A stretch of DNA of 64,000 nt from Nitrospirales bacterium (GCA_963555755.3 OY820905.2:3712001-3776000); one strand, 5' to 3'; numbered from the stretch's first letter, positions 47,094-64,000 are shown. The notes: generated by a model from the sequence alone, not told the origin. Made by a program: numbers and translations.

Positions 47094-47408
47094 CTATTCG
47101 CTTGACTGTTCAGGCAAAAGGTGAGATCCAACATCCATGCTGGCGTGAGGGATGCCGATGATTTCTATGATAGTGTCCGTGACTCTGTAGAAAATTATAT
47201 GCTTTCCTTCGGGAAGGCTTCTGTAATCTTTCAGTATGTCAGGTCTTGATCGTCCCAGATAGGGAGTTTTCACCAAATCATGGAATGTTTTTTCAAACTG
47301 GAAAACATATTTCTCGGCCTGCTGCTCGCCCCATCTTTCGAATGTGTACCGCCATATTTCTTGTAAATCATTCTTGGCAGCGGGCGTCAGCTTATAGTCA
47401 TTGGGCAT
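47094..47408 (-). CDS. parE: ParE-family toxin
   Basis: YKLTPAAKNDLQEIWRYT..RWG..QA..Y and HIIFYR motifs. Confidence 0.92.
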   Translation of the reverse strand: MPNDYKLTPAAKNDLQEIWRYTFERWGEQQAEKYVFQFEKTFHDLVKTPYLGRSRPDILKDYRSLPEGKHIIFYRVTDTIIEIIGIPHASMDVGSHLLPEQSSE

Positions 47409-47658
47409 TATGCTCTTGTTTGGCTTCTTCTATAATCTTCGAGATGGACTGATCAACGAATTCACCACGGTCGGCCTGCTCTGCCCCAACAGCTAGTTTC
47501 GTGCGAAGTTTCTCCAGCTTCATCTGATAGATCAACTCTTCGTGAGTTTCCATGAAGCGCAATGCTTCACGAATCACCTCACTCGCGTTGTTATAGAGAC
47601 CGGTTTGAACTTTTGATTTGACGATTTTTTCAAGCTCCGGTGTGAGTGATATATGCAT
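47398..47658 (-). CDS. parD: ParD-family RHH antitoxin
   Basis: ISLTPELE...V..GLYNNASEVIREALR motif; overlaps the toxin start. Confidence 0.92.
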   Translation of the reverse strand: MHISLTPELEKIVKSKVQTGLYNNASEVIREALRFMETHEELIYQMKLEKLRTKLAVGAEQADRGEFVDQSISKIIEEAKQEHNAQ

Positions 47659-48115: not shown

Positions 48116-48820
48116 ATGGCTTTGGTTTTAATGAAGGGACAGGAAGTCTGGTTTTTGAATCGCTGGAAGAAACGGAACCATGTTGGGTCCGGCCGTGGGC
48201 GTATTGCTGCGATTACGGTCGCCATCCTAGTCTCTCTCGGGCCGATATTGGCACAGGCGCAGGATAAAATTTCTGACGAGGTGGCTGTTGCGGTCTCTCG
48301 TGGCCGAGTATTGGGTATTACTAGTGGAGGCGGGTTTGTCAGAGCGCGTCTGAGCGCTGGAGAAACCGTGCTCTTGACCGAATCAAAAGGCATCAACGCT
48401 TTGGTGCAAACGTCTGACCGATTGCTGGGGTTTTCCGGCCCAGTGCAGAGATGGAGAGAGCAACGATTGGATATCTCCGAGAGCGTGCAGAAAACCCAAG
48501 TCACCTCACGGTTGATTTTTGTCCGGACTGATAAGCGGCTGTATGGCTTTCAAGGCCCCATCGGTCGGTGGAAGGTGCAGGATCTCGGTGTTCAAGAAGA
48601 GCATCTCCAGACAGTCGTACAAAATCACATTGCCGTGGTCGTGACCGACCGACGGGTGTTAGGTTTCTCTACGTTTACCGGCGGGTTTTTCGCTGAAGAT
48701 TTATCCAATGATGAAACGATCGAACATGTCGAGGCTAATGATAACATCATTGTGTTGTTCACCTCGTCCCGAAAACTCATCTTTCGTTCGCGCTTAGCCG
48801 TGTGGGCGGAAACTCGATAA
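48116..48820 (+). CDS. Exported hypothetical protein with ~38-aa beta repeats (start uncertain)
   Basis: Signal-like segment ending AQA; repeated V.T..R..GF...G.W units. Confidence 0.75.
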   Translation: MALVLMKGQEVWFLNRWKKRNHVGSGRGRIAAITVAILVSLGPILAQAQDKISDEVAVAVSRGRVLGITSGGGFVRARLSAGETVLLTESKGINALVQTSDRLLGFSGPVQRWREQRLDISESVQKTQVTSRLIFVRTDKRLYGFQGPIGRWKVQDLGVQEEHLQTVVQNHIAVVVTDRRVLGFSTFTGGFFAEDLSNDETIEHVEANDNIIVLFTSSRKLIFRSRLAVWAETR

Positions 48821-49102: not shown

Positions 49103-49327
49103 TCAGGCATACATATACACGGGAGCGTGTTTGTGTGGCTTCATGGGTTGCTCTATCAATTCTTCCAAATGCCGGATAGTGTTGGGTGCGAGGAGGGTGT
49201 CGGAACAGACGTCACAGACTTCTGCGGGAACTCGTTCAAAAACAAGGACGTCCTCTCCGCGTTTCAGAGTGTGAACGATGAGGCGTTCCTCATAGTTTCC
49301 TGGGCATCCTTGAACACTGCATTGCAT
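49103..49327 (-). CDS. YgiT/MqsA-type zinc-finger protein
   Basis: MQCSVQGC...VPAEVCDVC motif. Confidence 0.85.
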   Translation of the reverse strand: MQCSVQGCPGNYEERLIVHTLKRGEDVLVFERVPAEVCDVCSDTLLAPNTIRHLEELIEQPMKPHKHAPVYMYA

Positions 49328-49329
49328 GT

Positions 49330-49665
49330 TTATTTTCCTCTTTGGAAAGGCGTCACCCATTTAGGCGCGCGTGGTTCATAAACCGTGATGATTATCGCAT
49401 GTTCAAGCGTTGTTGTACACACGACATGTACGTATCTTCCATGTGACGTTTGCTTGCAAATCAAACAGCAGGGACCCCGACGGTGTTCCGCATAATTTTC
49501 CACGAACGTGGCATCAAGAAGGACCTCCAGGATCTCCTCAAGGGAAATATCTTCCTCCACCATCTCCTGATGTCCGTGAAGAGTGATCCGAAGCTTGTCA
49601 GTTTCGGCTTGCCGTCGCAACTGCGCCAATATCGCGTCGGGATCCTGGGTATCAATGTCGGTCAT
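49330..49665 (-). CDS. DUF4258 family protein (putative RNase toxin)
   Basis: T.H...EM, HVVC and IITVYEP..PKW motifs; paired with the YgiT zinc finger. Confidence 0.85.
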   Translation of the reverse strand: MTDIDTQDPDAILAQLRRQAETDKLRITLHGHQEMVEEDISLEEILEVLLDATFVENYAEHRRGPCCLICKQTSHGRYVHVVCTTTLEHAIIITVYEPRAPKWVTPFQRGK

Positions 49666-49782
49666 GGTTACAAAAAGACGCGGAGAATTTAATGGTCTTC
49701 ACACATGGAGCCAAGGAAATCAAATTTTGTCAGCGAGTCTACCACAAGTTGGATGAATAAGCCGTGATTCCTAATTTTGCAG

Positions 49783-51686
49783 CAGGGCTATTTCATATTA
49801 AAGTGTAACTTTATAGATAATAAGGAATAATCGATTTAGGCTGGCTTTTTCTTTTCGTTTACGGCATACTCTTTTGCATGCCAGACGAATCGCCAAGCGG
49901 ACAGCCGGACATTGATCTGAGGCAAGTCGTGGTTCGCCCAATTGTCCGAGACGAAAAGGACGCCTTCAAGACCCTTCTCGACAGACACCACTACCTCGGT
50001 CATGCCCCGCTGATTGGCCAATCGATACAATATCTCGCCTGTGTGCAGGATCGCTGGCTGGCCTTGCTGGTGTTTGCGGCGGCGGCCCTCAAATCGAGAC
50101 CGCGAGACCACTGGATCGGCTGGCCCCCCTGTTTTCAATGGCAACGACTCCATTTACTGGCCAACAACACCCGGTTTCTCATGCTGCCGGGCTGTTCGCA
50201 AAAGAACCTCGCCTCGAAAGTCCTGTCGCTCTGCGCGAAACGGATCTCGGCCGATTGGCAACTGTACCACGGCTACCCCTTGCTCCTCTTAGAGACCTTC
50301 GTCGATCCTGCCCGCTTCACCGGGACCTGCTATCGGGCCGCCGGGTGGCACGAGCTCGGTCTGACACGAGGGTTTCGCAAGTCGAACACGTGTTATGTTC
50401 AGCATGAGAGACCGAAGCGCATCCTAGTCGTGCGGCTGCATCCCCAAGCCCGAGAGATCCTTGCACGCCCGATGCTTGATCAGCCCTATCAGAAAGGAGA
50501 AGCGCCTCAGATGAGATTGAATACAAAACAGACGGACTCCCTCTTTACGTATGTGGTGCAGCTGACCGATCCCCGCCATTTGCAAGGGCAACGGCACACC
50601 CGACGCGCCCTCACGGCGATCATGTTCTGTGCCACCTTGTGCGGCGCGCGCGGCTATGAAGCGATCTCGGACTGGGCCCAGCAGTTATCGCAGCCGATGC
50701 GCAAGCGGCTAGGCTGTACTCAGCGAGGGGGGCGCTACCTCGTCCCGAGCCGCAGCACTCTTTACCGCTTTATCACGGCCGTCGACCCCTGTGAAGTCGA
50801 TACCCTGCTCGGCCGGTGGCTGGACACCTTCGGCGGGGAGGATCAGGGCATTGCCATTGATGGGAAGACCATGCGGGGGACGTCGAAGGTCCCAAGCGAA
50901 CAGACCCACGTCCTCAGCGCCGTCACCCATCAAGCCGGGCGCCACCTCACCCAAAAAAAGTTCACTCCAAGACCAATGAGATCCCCTGCGTGCGGCCCCT
51001 GTTAGATGCGCTCGAGATCGCAGGGAAGGTGATCACGGCGGATGCGCTCCTCACCCAGAAAGAGATTGCCGAGTACCTGGTGCACGAACGCGGCGCCGAC
51101 TTCGTCTTCACCGTCAAGGGAAACCAGCCCACCTTGAAGCACGACATTGAGGCCTTAGCGTTGCGAGCACGCCGGTGCGATTATGCCACCACCGAGAAAG
51201 GCCATGGGCAGATCACGACCCGCAGGATCTGGTGCGATGACTCCCTGAATGCCTATGTCAACTTTCCTCATGTCCAGCAAGTCTTCTGCATTGAGAGGGA
51301 AGTGACGCATCTCAAGCAGGGCCTCACGACCGTCGAAGCGGTCTGCGGTGTCACGAGTCAGTCCAAAGACAAGGCGGGGCCGAAGACCATCCTCTCGCAA
51401 AACCGAAAGCATTGGAGTGTGGAGAATAAGCAGCATTATGTGTTGGACGTCACCTTTGATGAAGACAGGAGTCAGATACGAAGTCTCAATGGCCCAATGG
51501 TCATGACCTGTCTGAGACGCTATGCCATCAGTCTCTTACGCCTGAAAGGCTACACCAATATCGCGCAGGCGTGTAGACTGCTCTGGGGCAAGCCCCATTT
51601 AGCCATCCGCATGGCCCTGCCCTGAAAAAGAGGGCACAAAAAACCTCATGGAATCCCTTGCTTATAAAAAGAATGAAATGGCCCTG
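49783..51686 (+). mobile_element. ISAs1-family element, copy 2 (intact, 1904 bp)
   Basis: TIR CAGGGCTATTTCAT/ATGAAATGGCCCTG; 10-bp TSD AATTTTGCAG. Confidence 0.95.
49878..51625 (+). CDS. DUF4338-like/ISAs1 DDE transposase via -1 frameshift at A_AAA_AAG (50954-50960)
   Basis: ORF1 49878-51005; the -1 frame continues KVHSKTNEIPCVRPLL...ITADAL...HWSVEN. Confidence 0.88.
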
Positions 51687-51749
51687 AATTTTGCAGGGTG
51701 GGAATTGCTCACCTTTTAATTTTATGCGGGGGCGACACCCCACATTTAA

Positions 51750-52304
51750 ACCTAGAAACAGCAGTTGGATCACAAAAGTCCGCGTAAGCTCTTGACGCAA
51801 CCTAGGAGCCTGTCCAAGATTAGACTGATCAACTGTGGGTGTGCTGGAGGTGGCCAGATCTTCCGATCCTTTTCGGGGAATGTTGAAAAAGACCGCCAGC
51901 TGCGTTCTCGGGCTTTTGGTGTGCTCACGTACTCCGTGTACGCTCCGCGCGCCAAAACCCCTGCGGCCTTGCTGGATGGCCTTTTTGAACATTCCCCGTT
52001 TTCGTTAAATAGTCACCACTATTCGCCTCAAACGATCGAAACATCTGACTCAAACCAGCACCCCCTCGTCACGATCGCAAATCTTGGACAGGCACCTCGC
52101 AAAATAAAAAAAGTCTCATCACCACCAGAGATTACCCCCCCACTCTTGTCATTTCGACCCTTGGGAGAAATCTGTGGTTCGGCAGAAGGGAGATTTCTCC
52201 CAAGGGTCGAAATGACAGCCCCGAGGTGACTACGACTTTTTTTATTTCACCATGCACGCCAATATCTTACACGTCTTTTTTGCGCCCAACTGCCGTTTCT
52301 AGGT
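51750..52304. mobile_element. Family E copy carrying F (51806-52095), itself carrying G (51874-51998), plus palindrome H (52147-52217)
   Basis: ACCTAG/CTAGGT ends with a TAA duplication; each inner element retains its own TIRs. Confidence 0.88.
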
Positions 52305-52510
52305 TAAATCGTTGAAGAGGGCACAATGAGATTTTGCAGCTACGAGAGGCATAGGGATGGCTCAACAGGCCCTGAAGGAATAACACACGAGAGTGTTGCT
52401 TCACTCTACGCATGGTGCAGCACGAAACTATCCTTGTTTTCTCTTTTTTTCTCAACGTGTTAGATTTGCAGAGCTTGTTCAAACCTAATCCATAAATTTT
52501 CAATGAGCCC

Positions 52511-55500
52511 TTGCTTGCCAGTGGCATGACTGCTTCAGACCCCGACACTAACCCGCCCCCAACGCCGAAACCATCGGGAATAAGACGAGTCTTGAAATGG
52601 CTGGGGGTTTTCGCCGGCCTTGTTTTGATCCTTGTGTTGTGCGTCGTCTTGCTGTTGACCTATTGGTTCCCCTCTGAATTGGTGCGTGAGGAGTTAGAAG
52701 TGCGATTGTCTGACATGCTGGATGGGACGGTGCGCATTCGGGGTCTGTCCTTTAACCTTTTGCATGGACTGAGCTTACAGCACGTCGAATTTCAGAAAGG
52801 CCCACAGCCCATGCTTGAACTCGATCGTTTGGTTTTAGATTACAGCCTGTTCGGTCTTCTCCAGCAGAAGTTGAAAATCAATGAGGTTCGCATCGACGGA
52901 GCTGATCTTTCTCTCAACTTGGCAGAGTTACAGGGGGCTTCGGACGAACACGAGCCAGCTCCGCCTTCGACGGACCCTGGAGCGTTGCCTCCAATCCCTT
53001 TGAGCTTGGATCTCGAATCTTTGATCATCAGTCGGACCAATATTCAATTAGATGTGTCACCGGACCTTGCGGTGACGGTGCGTGATCTCAACCTTGAACT
53101 GTCTGGTGGAGTCGAACACGATCTTGTTCAACTCAAGGGTGTGGTGGTGGTGGCGCAAGTGGGGGTTGATCTTGAGGAGAAGGAACTCCGTTTTCCCCTT
53201 GGTCTGAGCTTCGATGTCAAAGCGGATTTGCCCTCACAACATCTGACCCTTGACCACGTGACGGTCACCTCAGAGCCGACGCTAGATTTGACGCTATCGG
53301 GAACAATCGAGGAGTTTCTCGGCAATCCGTCTGTTGATCTTTCGCTAGATGATACTCGGTTTGATATCCAGCGGATCTTGGCCTTAGTCCATGACTTTGT
53401 GCCAGCGGAATTTCATGATGTAAATGTCTCCGGAATCCTATCGCCCACATTGTTCGTCAAGGGAGGGCTTGGGGAGAGTGGGTTTTCCGGAGCGGTGAGC
53501 ACGGGCCTTGCGATTCAGGGTTTACAGACAGATCTTACCCAGTTTGAGATAAAACTCCATCCCACGAATGTGGAAGTGAATCTGACGGATGTGGTGATTA
53601 AAGACAATATGCCTGATGCCGGAACCATTGAGATTCACGTTCAGTCAGACAAGGCGGCGTTCCAGATTTATGAGGTCGAGGGCTTGGACTTTCAGTTTTC
53701 AGGAGATTACTTTGCCTTGGGGCCTGTGTCTGTGAAAATGAATGTTTCGGGCACAGCCAATTTACCGCCTCAAGAGCCGCTTGCGGCACTGACGCTTCCA
53801 TTCGCCGTACGACTCGACGCGCTTGGAAACTATCGTACGCAGGATGCCAAGATCAAACAGTTGGTGGTGGAATTGGGCAACCTACTGACGGTTCAACTCG
53901 ACGGGACTGTGAAACCCAATCCGGGTTCGCCCCAGACCATGAGTGTCGATCTGAAAACGCGGCTTGAACCTCACCTTGAGCATATTTTTCCCCTCGTTCC
54001 TCAAAATCTGTTACAGGATTTTTCTATTGAAAAACTCACTGCGCCGGATTTTCTCACCGTCCACGTTCAAGCGAGACTCGATACAGAGTATCGGCCGCTT
54101 GATGCAGACGTCTCAGCCAGAGGGAATGTGGGCAACATGACCATCAGGCAGAAAGCATTCTCTGCTGGAGGCACCCTCGACACCATGAATGTTGTTCTTG
54201 CGACCCGGTATAATGCTCAGAGGGAGGATGTCAGGGGATCCGTAACCGGGAACCTGACTCTCGTAGGTCTTGACTATGGGGAGATGGCTGCGGTTGGGCA
54301 AGTTGGTTTGGCGTTGGACACCTCCTTTAGCGGACGGCTCTCTTCCACCTTTGAGCTCAGCGAGTTGTTGTCTGAGCAAGCGTTAACCCTGTTGGTAAAG
54401 AACCTGCAGTATACCTCTCCGGAATTAGGGGTGGGCTTGGAGGAATTGACGTTATCCGCCACACTCCATGAAGACTTTGATGAACAACATTTTACGGTCG
54501 ATGAACTTCGTGTGACCAGTGAGTCGCTCATGGATGTGATGCTCGCCGCTGACTTTCACCAGGAGTCGAAGAGCTTTGATGTTTCGCTCGATATTCCCTA
54601 CGTGAATGTCGGGGAGTTGCAAAGCAAGTTGTCTGGTGAGGCAGTACAGAGTCTGAATGAATTGAATCCCGGGGGTACGATGTCACTTTCCATGAAGGCT
54701 TCGGGCCGAGTGCCTGAGGAACAGGACATCCAAGCATTGGACATTCCCGTTGCCCTGACCACCAAGCTTTCTTTGGACAACGTGCATGGAGCCTTTGCCG
54801 ACTATCTGGTGAATGGCGCTGAAGGCACGGTCTCTTTTTCTTTTGTGCCGGGCGATCGTCCTGTGGTGCAGGTGGAAACCGATCTTACGTTTGCCGAGGT
54901 GTTGTTGGAACCGGGGTTACCGCTTGAGCGTCTGTCCGGGACATTTGCCAAGTTTAATATCATGACGACAAATTTTGATGAAGTTGCGGTAAATACGTTG
55001 CATGTCGGAATGGACGGCGCGGATGTTTCCCTGGAAGGTACGATTGGCGGCATTCGAGAGATCATTGAAGGTAAGGGCAATGTGATGTCGAACTTGCCGG
55101 ATATGTTTGCCCAAGTGAACACCACTGTTCAGGTAAGCCTCGATGAATTTCAAACGGTGTTGCAGCCGATGGGGCTCATTGGCACAGGACAAGTTCAGGT
55201 TGGTGTGTCTCTCTTAAAGAAGGAGCGTGGCCCCCTGGCTCTGAAGCTGAATCTGGGAAGCCGAGGTATCCAATTCAGTCAGGAGGGAACACGAATAGAA
55301 AATATGGATGGGCAGATCACCATCCGAAAGCGACTGAACTGGATTGAAAACGCCGGTGCCAAATCCCAGACACGAATGTTTCGTCCAACTGATGTGCTGT
55401 CTCAGTTGCGTTCGATTAAAGGAAAAGAAAAGAGTTTGGCCGTTGAACGTCTCGATCTTGGATTGATCTCGGTGTCGAACTTTTCCGCGAATATTCTGTT

Positions 55501-56101
55501 TGATCAAGATGCCTTCAAGGTTCAAAATTTAGCCATGAATCTGCTGAATGGGGGGGTGGGCGGAAACATTATCGTGACCGGTGGTAAGGCGTTTGGTGTG
55601 GCAGGGCGATTTGAAGCGGCGCATCTCGACCTCAATCAATTGCTTGATGACACGCAACGAATATCCGGAGATAACCTGCTGGATGCGACCATTGGCCTGT
55701 CGGTCTTTTTTGACAAAGAGACCGGAGCGCTGGATCTGAGTCGAACTGAGGTGAAGCTGTTTATCACGCATATTGGCCAGGAAGCCGTTGATCGGTTGTT
55801 GGTATTGCTGGATCCCGAAGGCAGTAATCCCACCTTGGTTTCCGCGCGGTCGCAAATCACACTCGCCAATCCGTCCAAGGTGTCCCTGCAATTGACAAGA
55901 GGAATGCTGGGTTTGGAGATTCTGTTTAGTGAAGGCTTCCTCCAGCCGTTTCGGCTCAATCGAATTCCGATCGGGAAGATCAAACAATTTAAGGCTGTCA
56001 CGGAAGGCATTCCCGGTTGGGACAATGTGAGAGAGATCATGGCCTTTGTTGGCGCTCAGTCTTATGGTCTGGATGAACAGGGAAAACTGGTGCTGCAGTA
56101 A
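52511..56101 (+). CDS. Large AsmA-like/YdbH-like envelope protein (start may be ATG 52526)
   Basis: Single N-terminal TM helix after RRVLKW, then ~1100 aa of alternating hydrophobic beta-strand pattern; INEVRIDGADLSL is AsmA N-terminal-like. Confidence 0.7.
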   Translation: MLASGMTASDPDTNPPPTPKPSGIRRVLKWLGVFAGLVLILVLCVVLLLTYWFPSELVREELEVRLSDMLDGTVRIRGLSFNLLHGLSLQHVEFQKGPQPMLELDRLVLDYSLFGLLQQKLKINEVRIDGADLSLNLAELQGASDEHEPAPPSTDPGALPPIPLSLDLESLIISRTNIQLDVSPDLAVTVRDLNLELSGGVEHDLVQLKGVVVVAQVGVDLEEKELRFPLGLSFDVKADLPSQHLTLDHVTVTSEPTLDLTLSGTIEEFLGNPSVDLSLDDTRFDIQRILALVHDFVPAEFHDVNVSGILSPTLFVKGGLGESGFSGAVSTGLAIQGLQTDLTQFEIKLHPTNVEVNLTDVVIKDNMPDAGTIEIHVQSDKAAFQIYEVEGLDFQFSGDYFALGPVSVKMNVSGTANLPPQEPLAALTLPFAVRLDALGNYRTQDAKIKQLVVELGNLLTVQLDGTVKPNPGSPQTMSVDLKTRLEPHLEHIFPLVPQNLLQDFSIEKLTAPDFLTVHVQARLDTEYRPLDADVSARGNVGNMTIRQKAFSAGGTLDTMNVVLATRYNAQREDVRGSVTGNLTLVGLDYGEMAAVGQVGLALDTSFSGRLSSTFELSELLSEQALTLLVKNLQYTSPELGVGLEELTLSATLHEDFDEQHFTVDELRVTSESLMDVMLAADFHQESKSFDVSLDIPYVNVGELQSKLSGEAVQSLNELNPGGTMSLSMKASGRVPEEQDIQALDIPVALTTKLSLDNVHGAFADYLVNGAEGTVSFSFVPGDRPVVQVETDLTFAEVLLEPGLPLERLSGTFAKFNIMTTNFDEVAVNTLHVGMDGADVSLEGTIGGIREIIEGKGNVMSNLPDMFAQVNTTVQVSLDEFQTVLQPMGLIGTGQVQVGVSLLKKERGPLALKLNLGSRGIQFSQEGTRIENMDGQITIRKRLNWIENAGAKSQTRMFRPTDVLSQLRSIKGKEKSLAVERLDLGLISVSNFSANILFDQDAFKVQNLAMNLLNGGVGGNIIVTGGKAFGVAGRFEAAHLDLNQLLDDTQRISGDNLLDATIGLSVFFDKETGALDLSRTEVKLFITHIGQEAVDRLLVLLDPEGSNPTLVSARSQITLANPSKVSLQLTRGMLGLEILFSEGFLQPFRLNRIPIGKIKQFKAVTEGIPGWDNVREIMAFVGAQSYGLDEQGKLVLQ

Positions 56102-56199
56102 TGCGTAAAGCGTAATGCGTTATGAGTAAATGGCAAAGGAAAATACAGAGATGAGTTTAGGTCTCTTCACCCATGACGCATCACGTTTTACGCATCACG
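56099..56199. repeat. Heptamer-periodic inverted repeat
   Basis: TAATGCG TAAAGCG TAATGCG ... CGCATCA CGTTTTA CGCATCA CG. Confidence 0.7.
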
Positions 56200-56248
56200 A
56201 TTTTTCAGGAGGAGCCCAATGATGCCTCATCAAGGAGGAACACATACC

Positions 56249-56818
56249 ATGAAGCACATGAGTCAAACCATCCTTTGGCTCGTCCTAGTCTTTGTCGCTG
56301 GATGTGGTGGACCCTTGGTGGGTGTCACGGTAGTCGATGAGCGAACAGCCTTGGAAAATCAGGTGTTGGGAACCTATGAAGAGTTAAACCAGGAAGTGCT
56401 CTTAGTCGCGTCGGTTCGCTACATCGATCCCAAAGGAAAATTGAAAAAGTCTGCGGAAATTCCTTCCGGGAAGAAAAAGGTGATTCGGGCTCTCCAGCGT
56501 GCGTCATTCAATAAAGATGATATTGATCAGTACAAAGAACATGGGGTGCTCGGAGAGAACAATCAAGGTGGGATTACGCTCCTAGCCTCTGACAAGGTTC
56601 CCCCTGACCAATTGCCCTTTGTGGAACATCTGGTTCAGGAAGAAAACGCCGATCGTGAGATGGTCATGCGTCGGGTCATCGAGACGAATGAGAAACTCTC
56701 CAAGAAGGATTTTCCAAGGGTGAAAAAAATGTTTGCTTCATTAAATCGTGACAAAGCTTTGGCCGGGCACTTGATCCAATCCGAGGATGGCAAATGGACG
56801 AAAAAGGAAAAGAAATGA
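56249..56818 (+). CDS. Lipoprotein with YdbL/DUF1318-like domain
   Basis: AGGAGG RBS; lipobox VAGC; K..GVLGENNQG, LVQEENADR and G..IQSEDGKWTKK resemble YdbL. Confidence 0.75.
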   Translation: MKHMSQTILWLVLVFVAGCGGPLVGVTVVDERTALENQVLGTYEELNQEVLLVASVRYIDPKGKLKKSAEIPSGKKKVIRALQRASFNKDDIDQYKEHGVLGENNQGGITLLASDKVPPDQLPFVEHLVQEENADREMVMRRVIETNEKLSKKDFPRVKKMFASLNRDKALAGHLIQSEDGKWTKKEKK

Positions 56819-59800
56819 CAATAATCTGTTCGTCCCGCATCACGAGATTTCCAAAATCTTTAAAGAAGCTGATGTGGAGTCTTCTGTTCCTCGTGATGAG
56901 TGTTTTCTCTAGTCCCTGGCTCGGACAGGCTGCTGATGTTCATCAGGTCACCACGCATCCTGCACTGGAATATTTTCCTGCACCATCTCAAGACGGACGA
57001 TTTCTGGCCTTTGTGTCCGAACGATCGGGAAATGCGGACATTTGGTTGAAATCCTTGAGCCTTGGCGTAGTGTCCTTGCCCCGTCAACTAACGACGCATC
57101 CAGCCGTCGATAGAGATCCGTCCTTGAATGCTGAAGGCAGTCAATTGCTGTATGTCTCTCATAAGTCTGATCCTCGGGGAGACGTGTATCTGATGAATCT
57201 GACGACCGGCGAAGAGGAGCGACTCACCGGTTTAGGTACGGCAGATTCATTGCCGCAATGGGGAGAGGACGGAAATTCAATATTGTATCTCTCCCAGGAT
57301 GTGGTTTCTGGTGTTCAAACATTGAAACGACGAGCCGTAGCCAGTCATCAATCAACCACTCTGCTTTCAAATGTGTCCGCGTATACGATTGGGCCGGATG
57401 GCTGGATCGTGGTTTCGCAAAATGGAACATTGTTCCTTTTCAATGAGCAGACACCAGATCACGTGAAAAGCTTGGACGTGTCTTCGGGGTTGAACATGTG
57501 GTCGGCGATAAGTGGCGATCACTCTGTGGCCTGGACCCATTACGCGCAAGACAGCAATAAGGATGGGGTGTTGGATGCGAACGACGAATCTTCCATCTGG
57601 TTTGGTCAATGGGATTTCCAAGGCGGCACACAGCTCAGTCAGTATCACATGACGTCCTTAGGCCAATTCCATCTCTACCCGGCAGCGGCCCAAGGGTTTG
57701 TCTATTTTACGGATTTGGAAAAAGGGGACATCTTTCGAATCCGAATACAGGAATTTCTCGACGACTATTCCTCATTTGATCAGGCCAAAACACTGGCCGA
57801 CCGGCTATTGGATCGAGGCGAGATCAACAAGGGATTGGTCGTCCTCGCCAATATCTCGCGAAATTTGACGCAATCTCTTGATGAGGAAACCCGTGCCGAA
57901 TTTGATTTTGCCTACGCGGAACAGTTGATCGAGGCTGGTGAGTTTGTGCGAGCGCAACACGTGATCGAACCGTATGCAGAATCTTCAGGCGGGATTGGTG
58001 CGTTAGCAAACATTCACAAGGTCGTTCTGCCTCTGTACCAGCAAGCCCCTTCTATGAGTGAGGATGAACTCAAACGTGAGGTGAAAGCAGGCGCTGATGA
58101 GGTCATGGAAATCGGAGAAGTGTATGGAGAAAACGAAATCGTTTATGGCCAGGCTCTGATTGAAGCCGGTCGATTATATATGTTGATTGAAGATTCCCTT
58201 TCGGCTTTGGAATATTTAGTTCGCGTCGATGAGTTGGCGAACAAAGAGATTCGTGCCAAAGCCCTGTTTATCCGGGGAACGGTCTATCGGGGATTGGGAG
58301 ATCAAACCAGTGTACTCACGGTCTTCATTGATGTGATTACGATGTTTGGAGAAGACAGCTCGTGGGGAAAACGTGCGATCGCTCAAGCGATTGCCGTGTC
58401 GGAACAAGGGCAAGATGTGCATGAACACGTTGCCTCGCTTCGGGAACTCATTGCCCAGCAGGACACATTGAAGCTTTTGGTTGGGGCCACGCGGTTACGC
58501 ATCGCGGATTTGCTCGATGAGGCAGGCGAGCAGATCAAAGCTGTTCAAGCGCTTGACCGGTTGTTAGGCGAGCCTCCTCCCGACGTTCTGGCTTCCGACG
58601 CTCTGGTCACACAAGCCTATCGACGGAAAGCCGAGATTTTGGCTGCGGCCGAACGGTATGAGGAAGCGGCAGACATATATGGCATTCTCGTAGAACGAAC
58701 CGGAGAAGATCCGACGATGTTAGAGCAAGCCAAAGAACTCTTGGTCCTGCAACTGGTGAGAGAAGCAAGAAAGGATCGAACCATTGGCGAAGTCCGTATT
58801 GCCGCCAAGGCCTTTCGAAACATTACCGAAGATTACCCGGATTCGGTTGAAGCGCATCGCGGCTATATCAACACGAAGGTGATGCTGGAGGAGCTGCCTG
58901 AGGTGCAGGCGAGGTATCAAAATCTGGTTGCCCAGAAGCCTGATTCCTCGGTGTATCAATATAGTCAAGCCTTGGCGCTGTCCTATGCTCAGCCTCTTGA
59001 CGTGCCCAAAGTGGTGGAAATGCTTGAGGCGGCCATTCGTGTAGATCCGGGGGTTTCGTATTATCATCAGACCTTAGGGTGGGGCTATGAGCAGGAGGAG
59101 CAAATTGGTGGCAAACAAGGCTTTCTGGAAAAGGCGGAACACGAGTATCGGATTGCCCTTGAACTGAATGATGAATTCCGATTTCCTGATGTGGAGTCGA
59201 ATCTCCTCCTGAATCTTGGCAACACCTACCGGACGTTGGGTAATTTTCATGAGGCGTATCGGGCCTATCAACAGCGAGAGTCTGGCTATACACCAGCTGG
59301 GGATTCCGTGACTGAATTGCTGTACCGAAAAAACTATGGCGAGGCGTGCTTTAAGAGTGGGCGAACGGATGAAGCCTTGGTGCAGTATCAGTTAGCGTTT
59401 CATCGTGTTCCGGAAGACCAGAAAACTCTCAAAGCCGAATTGCTTGAACGGATTGCCCTCTCCTATCAAGACCTGGGAGACCATGCCAAAGCCGTCGATG
59501 CCTTTTCACAGGCATTGGAAATTAATCTCGAACTTGGCAACACAAAAAATCTTGCGCTGTTGCAACGGAACATTGGGGTGAGTCTGTACAACTTGAGCGT
59601 ATCCAGTTCAGGTGGGAGACGGGAGGCATTGAAGCGGGCGCTGAAAAACTATTTCACGAGCCTCGATACCCTCAAGCAATTTGGCGGAAAACAACAAAAG
59701 GAAAGCGCTGGTTTATTCAACGTCGATGTGGCGCTGGATGAGGGTGGCTCACAGGCTGCCACTGGATTTGACCAGAAGGGCGAACAGAAATTGATGTTTA

Positions 59801-62800
59801 GTTATATTGCGGGCACCTATGAGCGACTGGCTGAACCTGGCCCGGCGCGTGACTACTATCTGAAAAAACTTGAACTCATCTCTGAGACTGGTTTAACCGC
59901 GGGCAATGTGGGGCTCCTCACGGAAAAAGCCGTCGTACTGAACCGTGTTGGGTTGCTGTCTCATCAATTGGGTGAGGATGCCCAAGCCTTGGACTATATC
60001 CGGCAGTCCCTTGGCTACACCAAGACGTTAAGGTTGCCTTTTGGGACGGGAGTCAACCTGTATAATCTGTCGCGGTTGGCTGCTGAGGGTGTGCTTGGGG
60101 GACAGCCTGTTGATTGGACGATAATGACAACTCTCGTCGATGGTCTTGACCAGCACCTCGCAGAAGACCATGACGATGCTGCAACGTTTTATGCCCTGAC
60201 CAACACCGCTTTTTTGTTGTATCACTTGACCGAACCCCCACTCTTGGTTTCTCAAGATAGCGAAGGGACCATACAGGCCATGCATGCCTTTTATGACATG
60301 AAAAGTAAGGTATGGTCCTATTATACCAAGGCCGAAGAACTCTTGGTGCAGGGCTCAGTGCTTCCTGAAGGTCAGGTGTTGCCTACACAAGTTATTCTTA
60401 AGCTGAACAGGATGGAACTCGCGCAAGAGGCTGGAGAGCAGGAATCGTACCTGAAGATACAAGATGAATTATTGGCCCTGGTCGAACACCAAAATATTTC
60501 GAATGGTTGGTTGGGGTATGTTGCGCAAGCCGAGCAAGCTACTGATCAAGCCGAGCGGCAAGCCTTGCTCGCGCAAGCCTTTGATGCAGTGATGGCGCTG
60601 CCTTCACAGGTCTCCAATCCACAACAGGGAACAACCGCGGTTCTTGCTGGTTTGCAGACCTTATCTCGAATGTATGTGGATCAATTGGTAGAAGCTGAAT
60701 CCTATGCTCAGGCATTCGAAGTGGCCGAACGGCTGGACATGCGGGCTATGGTTATCCAATTGCAAGCGTCACTTGGTGAAGAGTTTTTCTTCAAAGGAGT
60801 GGGCGAATACGAAAGTGACCTTCGGGGTTTGTTGGCTGAGATCCGAAACAGTTTGGCCACGGCAAGGACTGAAGAAAGCGAAGCCTTGCTCATGGAACTC
60901 GAAGAGCTGTTATTTGGGCTGTATGAAGAATACCCGGCTGCCACGAGTTATTTCTGGCAATATCCGCCGCCAGAAGAAACGATGTCTCTCGTCTTGAACC
61001 CTGATCGAGTCTATCTCAAGGTCGTTGAAGGGATGAATCAGTTTCATGGGTTTATCCATGATGGGGCTGCAGTCCACTATGTTCCACTTGAAATGAGTGA
61101 AGGACGAGTTTCGGTGAAGGAGGTTCTGGGAGATTGGCTTTCAGGTGAAAGCCCCATGTATCTTTCAGTTCCGGATAATCATAGGCGAATGGTTACTCTG
61201 GCCCTGGCACCTACGAAGCCCGTGACGCGAGTATTCGGTTTTTATGACTTTGTGAGCGGGTATCACCAGCGAAGTGTTTTTTATTCCAATGTCGGGATTA
61301 TCGGTGAGTTGGCATTGGACCCCGGGCTCACAGCCGGTGATGTGCCGCTCTTGTCGCAACCATTGACTGGGGTCCCCAAGCACGATCATCCGATTGTGGA
61401 TCAATTGGACGTGTTAATTGCAACCCAACCACCTCAGGCGTTCAACTTTGTCTTGGCCGAAGAGTTGAAAGTACGAGAGCTCTTGCCGGTGGCGCGGTTG
61501 GCTGGGCGACCACACCATACGGCGGTTCTTTTTCATTCTCAGTCCTCCCGGGCTTCCTCAAATCCAGTCTTGATCTCGGCGCTCCTCCGAGCCGGGTTCC
61601 CGCATGTGGTGGTGGTTCGCGGCAATGACAATGAAAAAGCCGCGAGCCAGTTTGCCTCGCTGTACTTGGCCTACTTGAATGATGTGCCTCCCGACGAAGC
61701 CGTGTTCATGGCCAGAAGTGATGTGTGGGGGGCACAAGTGGGTTCCGCGCACGTCGAACTGTTTGGCTATGCGGGCATGAATGAGGAAGAGCGTGCCGAG
61801 TTTGCCGCATCCATTTACGATGAAGAGTTGGCAGCAGCCGTCAGCCTCTTTCAGGAAGACCAATTCGAACCGGCGTTGCAAAAAATGGAACATGCGCTTT
61901 CGGTGATTCATTATGCGGATAAATCCTCAGATTTTGCGGATTTGACCAAGCTGGCCGTGGATGCGTCTTTCAAGATTGGGAATTATCACAATGCCGTGTT
62001 TCATCAGAAGCGACTCCTGGAATCGCTTGATGAATCCACGCAACCCGAGGAACGCTCGGAAGCCTTGTATCGCTTGGGCATTCTCTATTCGCGGTCGGAA
62101 CAGTTCGATGAATCCATTCGGTATTTAGACGAAGCCATTCAATGGTGGACCAAAGCCGAGGAACTGGATCGTTTGGCTGAAGGCATCGCGCAATTGGGCG
62201 TGGTGCGGGAAAATATGGGGGCCTATTCCGATGCGTTGACGGAATTCGGCCGGTCGTTTGAGCTCTATGAGGAGATTGGCGAGATTGGCGATGTGGCCAC
62301 GCAGCATCGTCGCATTGGCCGGATTTATTACTTGCGATTAGGCCGATATGAAAAAGCCAGAGAACAGTTTCACGCGGCTCTCGACCTGTACCGCGAACTT
62401 GAAGATTCCAATGGGGAAGCCGAGACCTTGTTTGAGATTGGTCTGACCTACGAAAAGATGGGATTGTTTGATGAGGCCGATGAACAGTATCAGGCAGGCA
62501 ATCACATCGGCCAAGCGATTGAGTCGCCCTATCTGTTAGCGACAGGCAATTTGTATTTGGCCAATACGGCCTGGTTTCGAGGCGATTACCAAGAGGCGTT
62601 TCAGAATCTCACGCAGGCTGGCAAACAAGCCGATGCGGCTCAAGATGCGCAGCTCACCATTATGGTGAAAAATACGCGAGGCCTGATGTATTGGACCTTG
62701 AACGATTTGGATAAGGGGCTGACGCATTTAAAGCAAGCCGTGGTCTTGGCGGAAAAAACGGATATCAAAACCGAGCTGGCTTCGTCACTCAATAACTTGG

Positions 62801-64000
62801 GGCTGGTTTATCGGCAACAGGGGGATTACGTGACGTCACTGGAATACTTTGAACAAGCCAAAGCCATCGATGAAAGCCTGAACAGCCGCTGGGGGCTTGG
62901 CTACGATTATCGCAACATTGGCATGGCGTTGCTGAAGCTCGACCGATTGCAAGAGGCGTTGACACACTTTGTCCAAGCGGCTCAAACCAGTGCCGAAATC
63001 AAAAATGCCATCAATTGGGTTAAGGCGTTGCTGGAGCTGGGGAACGTGCACCGGAAGCTACAACATCCGGACCAGGCCGTGGAGTACTATGAACAGGCCT
63101 ATGATCTCTCCCAAAAATACGGCCTCAAAGAAGTGCTCTGGCGGGCGGCTGCAGGACAAGCCGGTGTTCTACAAGAACGTGGCCAAGCCGAAGATGCTTT
63201 TGGCTGGTACGCTACTGCCATTGATGTGGTGGAAGGCATGCGTGCCGCGCTGAAGATCGATGAGCTTCGCAATAGTTTTCAAGCCAATAAACAGGATCTC
63301 TATCGGGACACGATCACCTTGTTAGTAGAGATGGGTCGAACGGATGAAGCCTTTAATTATCTGGAACGGTCGCGTTCGAGAAGTTTTATTGACCTCCTGG
63401 GCAATCAGAAACTGACATTAAAAAACGAGGCTGATCAGGAAGCGCTTGAGCATATTGGCCAACTGGCTTTGCGAGTTGACGCCCTGACTCAAGAGCTTGG
63501 GAGCTATGACGAAGCGCCTCTTGAGTTTCAAGATACACTCAGGGATGCCAAAGTCGCGCATGAGGAAGCGCTTCTCGAACTCAAGCAGGACAATCCGGGC
63601 CTGAGCAGTTTCGTGTCCGTTGATCCCCTCAATCTCCCTCAGGTTCAAGAGATGCTGGATTCAGGCATTGCGCTGGTGTCTTACCTGATGGGGAAAGACA
63701 CCACCTATGTGTGGTTGATCCAAAAGAAAGAAACCAAATTTTTTCAGACGGCCGGGGGGGAAGCCGCGATTCTTCCACTGGTGAAACAGTATCGTGGCTT
63801 GGTTCAGAATACCGAACCTGTTGATAAAGAGCTGCGGGAGCTGTATGCACGCCTCATCAAGCCCTTTGAGCAAAACCTGAAGGGTGTTGAATATCTCGGA
63901 ATAATCCCCGATGGGGCGCTCCACTTTCTGTCATTTTCAGCGTTGAAGAATGATCAGGGATATCTCATTGATCGGTATCCGCTCTTTTATGCTCCGTCTG
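56815..64000 (+). CDS. Giant exported protein: TolB/PD40-like repeats + TPR arrays + CHAT domain (partial, >2390 codons)
   Basis: ATGA overlap with the upstream stop; signal-like N-terminus; PAPSQDGRFLAFVSERSGNADIW; many TPRs (SLNNLGLVYRQQGDY); ends with FNYLERSRSRSF...LGIIPDGALHFLSFSAL...YLIDRYPLFYAPS (CHAT start). All segments I translated were in one frame. Confidence 0.9.
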   Translation, partial: MTIICSSRITRFPKSLKKLMWSLLFLVMSVFSSPWLGQAADVHQVTTHPALEYFPAPSQDGRFLAFVSERSGNADIWLKSLSLGVVSLPRQLTTHPAVDRDPSLNAEGSQLLYVSHKSDPRGDVYLMNLTTGEEERLTGLGTADSLPQWGEDGNSILYLSQDVVSGVQTLKRRAVASHQSTTLLSNVSAYTIGPDGWIVVSQNGTLFLFNEQTPDHVKSLDVSSGLNMWSAISGDHSVAWTHYAQDSNKDGVLDANDESSIWFGQWDFQGGTQLSQYHMTSLGQFHLYPAAAQGFVYFTDLEKGDIFRIRIQEFLDDYSSFDQAKTLADRLLDRGEINKGLVVLANISRNLTQSLDEETRAEFDFAYAEQLIEAGEFVRAQHVIEPYAESSGGIGALANIHKVVLPLYQQAPSMSEDELKREVKAGADEVMEIGEVYGENEIVYGQALIEAGRLYMLIEDSLSALEYLVRVDELANKEIRAKALFIRGTVYRGLGDQTSVLTVFIDVITMFGEDSSWGKRAIAQAIAVSEQGQDVHEHVASLRELIAQQDTLKLLVGATRLRIADLLDEAGEQIKAVQALDRLLGEPPPDVLASDALVTQAYRRKAEILAAAERYEEAADIYGILVERTGEDPTMLEQAKELLVLQLVREARKDRTIGEVRIAAKAFRNITEDYPDSVEAHRGYINTKVMLEELPEVQARYQNLVAQKPDSSVYQYSQALALSYAQPLDVPKVVEMLEAAIRVDPGVSYYHQTLGWGYEQEEQIGGKQGFLEKAEHEYRIALELNDEFRFPDVESNLLLNLGNTYRTLGNFHEAYRAYQQRESGYTPAGDSVTELLYRKNYGEACFKSGRTDEALVQYQLAFHRVPEDQKTLKAELLERIALSYQDLGDHAKAVDAFSQALEINLELGNTKNLALLQRNIGVSLYNLSVSSSGGRREALKRALKNYFTSLDTLKQFGGKQQKESAGLFNVDVALDEGGSQAATGFDQKGEQKLMFSYIAGTYERLAEPGPARDYYLKKLELISETGLTAGNVGLLTEKAVVLNRVGLLSHQLGEDAQALDYIRQSLGYTKTLRLPFGTGVNLYNLSRLAAEGVLGGQPVDWTIMTTLVDGLDQHLAEDHDDAATFYALTNTAFLLYHLTEPPLLVSQDSEGTIQAMHAFYDMKSKVWSYYTKAEELLVQGSVLPEGQVLPTQVILKLNRMELAQEAGEQESYLKIQDELLALVEHQNISNGWLGYVAQAEQATDQAERQALLAQAFDAVMALPSQVSNPQQGTTAVLAGLQTLSRMYVDQLVEAESYAQAFEVAERLDMRAMVIQLQASLGEEFFFKGVGEYESDLRGLLAEIRNSLATARTEESEALLMELEELLFGLYEEYPAATSYFWQYPPPEETMSLVLNPDRVYLKVVEGMNQFHGFIHDGAAVHYVPLEMSEGRVSVKEVLGDWLSGESPMYLSVPDNHRRMVTLALAPTKPVTRVFGFYDFVSGYHQRSVFYSNVGIIGELALDPGLTAGDVPLLSQPLTGVPKHDHPIVDQLDVLIATQPPQAFNFVLAEELKVRELLPVARLAGRPHHTAVLFHSQSSRASSNPVLISALLRAGFPHVVVVRGNDNEKAASQFASLYLAYLNDVPPDEAVFMARSDVWGAQVGSAHVELFGYAGMNEEERAEFAASIYDEELAAAVSLFQEDQFEPALQKMEHALSVIHYADKSSDFADLTKLAVDASFKIGNYHNAVFHQKRLLESLDESTQPEERSEALYRLGILYSRSEQFDESIRYLDEAIQWWTKAEELDRLAEGIAQLGVVRENMGAYSDALTEFGRSFELYEEIGEIGDVATQHRRIGRIYYLRLGRYEKAREQFHAALDLYRELEDSNGEAETLFEIGLTYEKMGLFDEADEQYQAGNHIGQAIESPYLLATGNLYLANTAWFRGDYQEAFQNLTQAGKQADAAQDAQLTIMVKNTRGLMYWTLNDLDKGLTHLKQAVVLAEKTDIKTELASSLNNLGLVYRQQGDYVTSLEYFEQAKAIDESLNSRWGLGYDYRNIGMALLKLDRLQEALTHFVQAAQTSAEIKNAINWVKALLELGNVHRKLQHPDQAVEYYEQAYDLSQKYGLKEVLWRAAAGQAGVLQERGQAEDAFGWYATAIDVVEGMRAALKIDELRNSFQANKQDLYRDTITLLVEMGRTDEAFNYLERSRSRSFIDLLGNQKLTLKNEADQEALEHIGQLALRVDALTQELGSYDEAPLEFQDTLRDAKVAHEEALLELKQDNPGLSSFVSVDPLNLPQVQEMLDSGIALVSYLMGKDTTYVWLIQKKETKFFQTAGGEAAILPLVKQYRGLVQNTEPVDKELRELYARLIKPFEQNLKGVEYLGIIPDGALHFLSFSALKNDQGYLIDRYPLFYAPS

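Follow-up and report, generated by a model that had tools for sequence, protein, structure and literature searches.

At the end of a 64,000-nucleotide stretch of a Nitrospirales genome (the window, G000:C1:3712001-3776000, from a genome of 4.6 Mb in two contigs), genes for a predicted intermembrane bridge, a YdbL-like lipoprotein and a giant TPR-CHAT protein follow one another. The question raised by this locus is whether a bridge and a caspase-like protease belong to one system, and how such a system could work. The three core genes recur together across several bacterial phyla, and we regard it as highly probable that genes 1-3 are one functional system. The cassette belongs with the YdbH-YnbE-YdbL kind as a variant for which the literature searched holds no description. 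A preliminary description of the window had presented it as three co-oriented genes, the last two coupled by an ATGA overlap. This arrangement is confirmed, with intact open reading frames (ORFs) on the plus strand and the overlap at 56815-56818. As a unit of three it stands for the core, to which an accessory SH3-M48 pair has to be added; this pair of co-oriented genes past the window and a second, internal CHAT copy had gone unmentioned. Stop codons in the frame, missing homology, a missing leader and unconserved linkage, which that description had named as counting against it, were not found. The features are given below; positions above 64000 are extended coordinates, which run on beyond the window.

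52529..56101, plus strand: gene 1, AsmA-like protein of 1,190 amino acids with N-terminal membrane helix and long amphipathic beta-sheet, predicted bridge
56249..56818, plus strand: gene 2, lipoprotein of 189 amino acids with lipobox Cys19, conserved N-terminal segment, SVR module and C-terminal YdbL domain (DUF1318)
56408..56572, plus strand: module of gene 2 (residues 54-108), opening with S-[VI]-R and homologous to the gene 4 tail
56815..64000, clipped by the window end, plus strand: gene 3, giant of 2,605 amino acids, running on to extended 64632 (G000:C1:3776632)
56926..57783 (approximate), plus strand: TolB-like PD40 propeller region of gene 3, boundaries estimated from an alignment
57550-57576, plus strand: DSNKDGVLD loop inside the propeller region
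60901..61773, plus strand: internal pseudo-CHAT without the His/Cys dyad, from a profile-profile alignment
63826..64000, clipped, plus strand: start of the C-terminal CHAT domain, which ends at extended 64623
Extended 64234 and 64369, beyond the window, plus strand: codons of the catalytic His and Cys, respectively
Extended 64678-65190, plus strand: gene 4, leader, SH3 domain and tail homologous to the middle of gene 2
Extended 65190-66134, plus strand: gene 5, leader and M48 zinc protease, 314 amino acids, with a TAATG overlap with gene 4

The gap between genes 1 and 2 is 117-147 bases. Alternative starts are a TTG at 52511 for gene 1, position 56219 for gene 2, and an ATG at 56794 for gene 3, which would give 2,612 amino acids. 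The frame of gene 3 runs without a stop past the window end to extended 64632 (2,605 codons from the ATGA), and its absence from the track of complete ORFs is probably due to its running off the window end. G+C content of the five genes is 0.47-0.51, close to the genome value of 0.51.

Linkage and co-occurrence of the core genes

The genome scan listed 79 loci, namely 21 full-length giants, three fragments and 55 other TPR-CHAT loci, and the counts given here are among the matches listed. In the named genome records, gene 2 lies directly upstream of the giant in 18 of 21 loci; gene 1 is present in 17 of the 20 loci with room for it, and genes 4 and 5 are adjacent in 11 of 17 with room. Genes 1, 2 and 4 were found by first-round profiles in none of the 55 other TPR-CHAT loci. 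All five genes stand in order in a named isolate, Geomonas oryzae S43, and together in rearranged order in locus L046.

Four genome samples (434 genomes, related and often incomplete, so that kin are not independent) were searched for the lipoprotein subfamily, which is present in 96 genomes; 93 of these also have the giant. Thus both the linkage and the co-occurrence for which the preliminary description proposed a survey are conserved elsewhere. In the order of the source genome (61 genomes), the gene 2 subfamily occurs in 17 and the giant in the same 17, adjacent in all; one giant without the lipoprotein comes from a 73%-complete genome. The 61 Nitrospinota genomes give a nested series, with gene 2 in 37, the gene 4 tail in the same 37, the giant in 35 and gene 1 in 33, and the remaining 24 have none beyond weak matches. 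The Nitrospinota genes are scattered, in G083 at 1.11, 1.16, 1.79 and 2.74 Mb, up to about 1.6 Mb apart. Among 161 genomes from the phylum of NaphS2, which we take to be Desulfobacterota, gene 2 was found in 8, the giant in those 8 and the gene 4 tail in 6; this sample was searched with a single-protein query, which may miss giants in the other 153 genomes. Two of its genomes, G145 and G180, were considered as having the lipoprotein without the giant and were rejected as exceptions, as they carry divergent giants elsewhere in the genome. In Myxococcota (151 genomes), gene 2-like proteins are present in 34, and 33 of these genomes also have the giant, which is adjacent in 19 and lies on a different contig in 14; gene 1 adjoins gene 2 in eight of ten loci examined. 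Kept in 35/61 Nitrospinota and 33/151 Myxococcota genomes sampled, the giant is more than a rare island.

Several loci depart from the common arrangement. In one Myxococcota group (L121, L122, L236-L239), genes 1 and 2 point towards each other, with the giant unlinked; behind gene 2 of L121 there is an outer-membrane barrel and a string of TPR genes. Among L093, L094, L104, L016 and L022, genes 1 and 2 are partly duplicated in one genome, whose giant frame stops after 1,601 amino acids, and three records have cassette genes split into several frames, which are possibly sequencing errors.

Gene 1, an AsmA-like protein

The product of gene 1 was recognized by Pfam AsmA with 31.3 bits (cut-off 29.8), in its N-terminal part only. 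Its AlphaFold2 model (55 sequences, predicted local distance difference test score 84.9) has a helix at residues 19-46 and then almost all strands, and the hydropathy gap between the faces of its 51 strands (2.21) exceeds all 500 shuffles (maximum 1.96). The top Foldseek match is LPD-3, a bridge-like lipid transfer protein, with E 5.8e-8 and probability 1.0, but a template modelling (TM) score of only 0.15. When a second aligner was used, the whole model gave generic, unspecific beta-barrel and sheet matches (best Z 12.1, root mean square deviation (rmsd) 10.7, 272 residues aligned), and LPD-3 was aligned with Z 8.7 and rmsd 50 over 532 residues. The N-terminus scored 41 bits with the GspN model (cut-off 50).

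The preliminary description had called this protein YdbH-like. The AsmA-like fold supports that name in part; judged by sequence, gene 1 is AsmA-like and probably not a YdbH orthologue. No YdbH-type Pfam match was found on gene 1, and PF11739 matched one of its 53 homologues; the gene 1 family profile reached the YdbH-like 937-amino-acid protein of the same genome with E 0.009 in a set of three sequences. That protein is encoded in a separate operon at G000:C1:2702015-2705481, together with a small YnbE-like lipoprotein and a plain YdbL, and the operon, presumably the true ydbH-ynbE-ydbL by its gene order, can cover housekeeping. A possible related locus in Leptospira was not confirmed: the LIC_11026 model matched N-terminal parts only, with at most 48.5 bits against a cut-off of 325, and a literature search on four Leptospira locus tags found nothing, no Leptospira genome being among those searched.

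Gene 2, a lipoprotein with a YdbL domain

Gene 2 matched DUF1318 with 43.1 bits (cut-off 27), and the domain is present in 43/43 family members. Its model superimposes on E. coli YdbL (28oj) with Z 12.1 and rmsd 1.8 over 87 residues, and the lipobox Cys is present in 42 of the 43 members, in agreement with the designation as a YdbL-like lipoprotein. According to the E. coli rule, a residue other than Asp at position +2 directs a lipoprotein to the outer membrane. Asp is never found at +2 in the family, and by this rule gene 2 is predicted to sit in the outer membrane.

Specific to the family is the N-terminal part, in which residues at 33-43, Ser55 and Arg57 do not vary; it is modelled as low-confidence coil and then helix after the lipid Cys. 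A YnbE-type Pfam match was found in 0/43 members, and comparison with the genome's own YnbE gave E 0.29. According to bioRxiv 10.64898/2026.03.16.712125, YnbE consists of one strand and a C-terminal helix binding YdbL, and the strand is lost without YdbH. Going by the model, the N-terminal layout of gene 2 is analogous to that of YnbE without YdbH. The same preprint reports that excess YdbL is toxic in E. coli and that DegP degrades free YdbL in vitro. Complex prediction with residues 800-1190 of gene 1 and 20-189 of gene 2 scored 0.01 (mark 0.32), with the controls not folded, and is uninformative either way.

Gene 3, a giant TPR-CHAT protein

The order of parts in gene 3 is a signal-like leader, a TolB-like propeller, TPR arrays, a dead CHAT copy, a further TPR array and the CHAT domain with the dyad. 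Of the parts read earlier from the window, PD40 matched with 37.6 bits, many TPR families were found, and CHAT matched with 219 bits at residues 2338-2603, all in agreement with the preliminary description. It is the sole CHAT match in the source genome. The TolB propeller model gave 53.8 bits against a cut-off of 343, and the neighbours are cassette genes, not tol-pal; the Csx29 model gave 34.6 bits (cut-off 300).

A search with residues 1-700 yielded 110 proteins, of which 106 (P0121-P0226) were counted, P0229 was kept apart and three unrelated propeller proteins were dropped. The closest species-named relative is from Candidatus Nitronereus thalassa, with 70% identity over these residues. 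The motif D-[TS]-[ND]-x-[DN]-G is present in 83 of the 106 giants, and the DSNKDGVLD loop, read from this motif, may bind calcium. A signal-like hydrophobic N-terminus, as noted earlier for this protein, was called in 89/106 giants against 1-2/106 for three internal control windows; the call comes from hydropathy as a heuristic and not from SignalP, and among the 17 misses several start inside the propeller or fall just below the threshold. A stricter 19-residue window (>1.6) flagged no segment in gene 3, its own leader included. Most giants have an ordinary, non-lipoprotein leader. In gene 3 the conserved propeller begins directly behind the leader, there is no membrane helix beyond it, and the protein is likely exported.

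The His/Cys dyad, which the preliminary description had hoped to find by extending the contig, is intact just past the window end, and gene 3 is predicted to be a caspase-like protease. Among 101 giants with a complete C-terminus, the His motif is present in 100 and the Cys motif in 101, both residues are kept by column in 34/34 aligned giants, and divergent Myxococcota giants have the His in 6/6 and the Cys in 5/5 where the locus held the stretch. The CHAT domain is the most conserved giant region (0.64-0.72 vs 0.28-0.55). The C-terminal CHAT is matched by residues from about 1370 to 1660 (hhalign probability 99.7, E 6e-26, 287 columns) with a duplication score of 182.7, controls reaching at most 16.4. 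In this inner copy the Cys is not conserved, and His reaches at most 15 of 34 rows; Pfam CHAT detects it in two divergent giants with 64-65 bits. In a phmmer search of solved structures with the last 610 giant residues, essentially only TPR proteins were found at E up to 0.01.

The best-characterised TPR-CHAT proteases had been taken as cytoplasmic. This holds for Csx29; a periplasmic TPR-CHAT protein with the dyad is already known, namely DdvA, according to PMC11506125, and a periplasmic TPR-CHAT protein is not new in itself. Many prokaryotic metacaspases may also carry signal peptides, as stated in PMC3501461. In a tree of 28 giants, a quick version in which long branches meet, giants labelled Candidatus Nitrotoga nest in Nitrospirales on very short branches, with a Magnetococcales giant as their sister (P0152, P0163, L013), by recent transfer or mis-binning.

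Genes 4 and 5, an SH3-M48 pair

Gene 4 matched Pfam SH3_3 with 32.9 bits and gene 5 Pfam M48 with 111.7 bits. The HExxH motif, the downstream Glu and the His-Pro of M48 are invariant in 21/21 sequences; the BepA model gave 96 bits only (cut-off 570), and there is no TPR tail.

Genes 2 and 4 have a module in common. A gene 2 profile built without gene 4 sequences matched 8/79 gene 4 proteins, and residues 115-170 of gene 4 align to residues 54-108 of gene 2 (hhalign probability 93.5, E 2.4e-7). Without signal peptides the module score is 47, against at most 17.2 in 60 shuffles and 13.4 in windows of other genes, and the reverse search with the gene 4 module reaches gene 2 proteins (E 1.3e-5 and 2.7e-4). 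Both modules open with the motif S-[VIT]-R, which is present in 42/43 lipoproteins and 22/22 SH3 proteins and is kept in nine of ten divergent Myxococcota lipoproteins.

The SH3-M48 pair is an accessory module, as it is separable from the core and has other partners elsewhere (CHASE2 cyclases). Of 71 metagenome loci with room, 67 have the M48 gene behind the SH3 gene, and the giant stands ahead of SH3 in 25/61. The gene 4 tail was not found in 5/5 genomes of KSB1-type, Myxococcota-type and Magnetococcales records, nor in G145 and G180. In L223:3223-4455, SH3 and M48 are fused in one ORF directly behind the giant, and the partial protein P0392 shows the reverse order. Distant SH3-M48 pairs adjoin CHASE2 adenylate cyclases in 3/3 loci checked (L211, L212, L215), with the motif altered. 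These may be an undescribed module of their own; a full-text literature search found no paper combining CHASE2, adenylate cyclase, M48 and SH3. The cyclase was rejected as a sixth cassette component, being seen only beside distant pairs.

How the cassette may work

The explanation which we tentatively prefer is a specialised second YdbH-type bridge controlled by its own periplasmic caspase-like protease. The gene 1-type bridge would span the two membranes, with its assembly or turnover under the control of the giant, and the lipid-anchored N-terminal segment of gene 2 would substitute for YnbE and cap the bridge at the outer membrane. We infer that the giant would remain periplasmic, would use its propeller and TPR arms to dock on the bridge or the lipoprotein, with a binding or regulatory role for the dead CHAT, and, once activated, would cleave the lipoprotein. 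The most likely place for the cut is the near-invariant S-[VI]-R loop, or its vicinity, which separates the anchor segment from the YdbL domain. Cleavage would release or remove the YdbL domain, akin to the removal of free YdbL by DegP in E. coli. The SH3 protein, carrying a copy of the module and travelling with M48, may be an accessory adaptor, a decoy or a second substrate. Proteolytic control is favoured because the core genes stay together without linkage, because the protease domain is under the strongest constraint, because a near-invariant Arg motif stands in the loop between anchor and YdbL domain, and because the YdbL level matters in E. coli and is protease-sensitive there. Cleavage after Arg is a trait of clan CD proteases, separase and metacaspases among them. 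TPR-CHAT enzymes are not uniform in their specificity, as PMC11506125 indicates. A further step, a two-protease cascade gating the bridge, in which the separase-like giant cuts the lipoprotein at S-[VI]-R and the SH3-tethered copy serves as decoy or relay to the second protease, is rather doubtful; if true, it would concern major marine nitrite oxidisers, sulfate and metal reducers, and myxobacteria.

Several points weigh against this explanation. The TM-score of gene 1's best structural match is low, and the N-terminus of gene 2 has no YnbE similarity detectable by sequence. Two Nitrospinota genomes (G096, G103) have the lipoprotein without the giant, as does Myxococcota G342 at the threshold used, and P0229, a divergent giant of 2,144 amino acids with a lipoprotein-like leader, lacks the catalytic dyad. 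The Arg of S-[VI]-R may have a structural role or serve to bind M48, since the related module is also found, with an altered motif, in SH3-M48 pairs next to CHASE2 cyclases. The co-occurrence counts overstate independent events, as much of the co-occurrence is within clades.

The giant could instead be cargo, with genes 1 and 2 as conduit or chaperone carrying it or other proteins to the surface as protease or adhesin. GspN, an AsmA-like beta-taco protein, is required for lipoprotein surface transport according to PMC12802150, and its model matches the N-terminus of gene 1 below the cut-off. Strict co-occurrence would equally suit a dedicated transporter and its cargo. DxNxDG loops are common in extracellular proteins, and the giant is acidic with such a conserved loop. 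Cargo is unlikely all the same, since no conserved outer-membrane barrel, secretin or two-partner transporter stands beside the cassette in the loci mapped (by ORF lists, with most neighbours unscanned by Pfam), the leader is mostly of the ordinary type, and TolB-like propellers are typically periplasmic. A conserved outer-membrane barrel partner, which the preliminary description had suggested looking for downstream, was not recovered in the loci mapped. Quite unlikely is a DdvA-like switch for envelope stress or phage, whose TPR arms would sense damage or a foreign protein at the bridge, upon which CHAT would fire and a signal pass inward or the envelope be broken. DdvA gates a defence island (PMC11506125), distant SH3-M48 pairs adjoin cyclases, and the distribution is patchy (8/161 in the NaphS2-phylum sample) with signs of transfer; but the giant has no membrane helix beyond the leader, the loci mapped show no recurrent sigma factor, kinase or cyclase as a neighbour of the cassette, and the Nitrospinota genes are dispersed among housekeeping loci and retained in more than half of the sample, unlike mobile defence islands.

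That the giant is mainly a scaffold organising the bridge, with protease activity minor or for self-processing only, would fit the roughly 85% of its length taken by propeller, TPR and dead CHAT, the lack of a conserved dyad in one of two CHAT copies across 34 giants, and P0229 without any dyad. We consider it very unlikely, as 100-101 of 101 complete giants and the divergent Myxococcota ones retain the dyad, and the active CHAT is the region most conserved. Hardly credible is a set of co-inherited neighbours without shared function: although kin are not independent and the SH3-M48 pair is separable and has other partners, the core content persists when scattered (Nitrospinota, the 14 Myxococcota genomes with different contigs, G145 and G180), all five genes stay together through the L046 rearrangement, and genes 2 and 4 have a homologous module in common.

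Comparison with known systems

Probably the cassette, by analogy, works like the YdbH-YnbE-YdbL bridge, with which it has a membrane-anchored AsmA-like beta-sheet protein followed by a lipoprotein and YdbL domain in common, and DegP is a precedent for protease control of YdbL. Strictly it stands outside that system, since two defining features are absent, a separate YnbE gene, for which there is no room in the gap between genes 1 and 2, and a free, soluble periplasmic YdbL, which here is fused behind the lipobox Cys with motifs of its own. Moreover, it adds a 2,600-residue CHAT protease and the SH3-M48 pair, and the canonical operon is present in the same genome. DdvA of Myxococcus xanthus resembles gene 3 as an extracytoplasmic TPR-CHAT protein with the His-Cys dyad, proposed to be signal-activated, but is a single-pass membrane protein of 991 residues with a cytoplasmic anti-sigma domain (PMC11506125). 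The giant has a leader, a propeller and a duplicated TPR-CHAT, and neither a membrane anchor nor a sigma partner was seen for it. Csx29 of craspase and separase also have a TPR array ahead of a CHAT protease with the dyad (same source), but work in the cytoplasm, in connection with CRISPR or chromosome segregation, and the Csx29 model is far from matching. GspN and TamB have the beta-taco fold and weak N-terminal similarity to gene 1 (PMC12802150), but gene 1 is about four times the length of the GspN model, and in the loci mapped the cassette has neither type II secretion genes nor TamA genes as recurrent neighbours. BepA and LoiP have the M48 catalytic motifs of gene 5, which differs in its short length, its lack of a TPR tail and its pairing or fusion with an SH3 protein.

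Full-text literature search found no paper with both a CHAT domain and DUF1318, supplements and most subscription papers lying outside the search; CHAT domain with AsmA gave two papers, both on DdvA, and in the one checked the match was an author's name. Among the matches listed the cassette is not described; a DdvA homologue table and YdbL conservation supplements may bear on its novelty. How AsmA-like bridges are assembled, regulated and disassembled is an open question on which the cassette bears. To our knowledge, most bacterial CHAT proteases have no known substrate, and in the cassette, where a bridge and a protease co-occur, a candidate for the substrate and one for the cleavage site can be named.

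Expression signals and neighbouring elements

Promoter and terminator scans of the cassette were at chance level (7 vs 10.5 and 18 vs 16.8, respectively). In an RNA-Seq run, 16 short contigs lie on the cassette, yet 29 of 30 bins of a control stretch including intergenic DNA were covered too, so transcription of the cassette is not demonstrated by this run. Atlas look-ups gave DUF1318 clusters, SH3 clusters and one unnamed cluster.

Upstream of the cassette, two small gene pairs at 47094-47658 and 49103-49665 resemble toxin-antitoxin modules, and 48116-48820 encodes a protein of 234 amino acids with a hydrophobic segment and apparent internal repeats, for which no Pfam family was over the cut-off. 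In an insertion sequence at 49780-51700, one ORF joins a DruA-like domain to a DDE_Tnp_1-associated domain, and a second ORF, which overlaps the first, encodes the transposase core; the overlap suggests a programmed frameshift. The genome has 41 near-full copies of this element, and the best of them are 99.9-100% identical. The flanks at 51700-52520 and extended 66140-67200 contain interspersed repeats of about 170-390 bases with 460-500 blastn matches in the genome. Downstream, a short group II intron without a long ORF (L001:15205-15895, extended 67205-67895; two Rfam domain matches) has five near-full copies at 89-100%, and an extra match to its 3' end, some 2 kb away from one of the copies, may point to a longer parent element.

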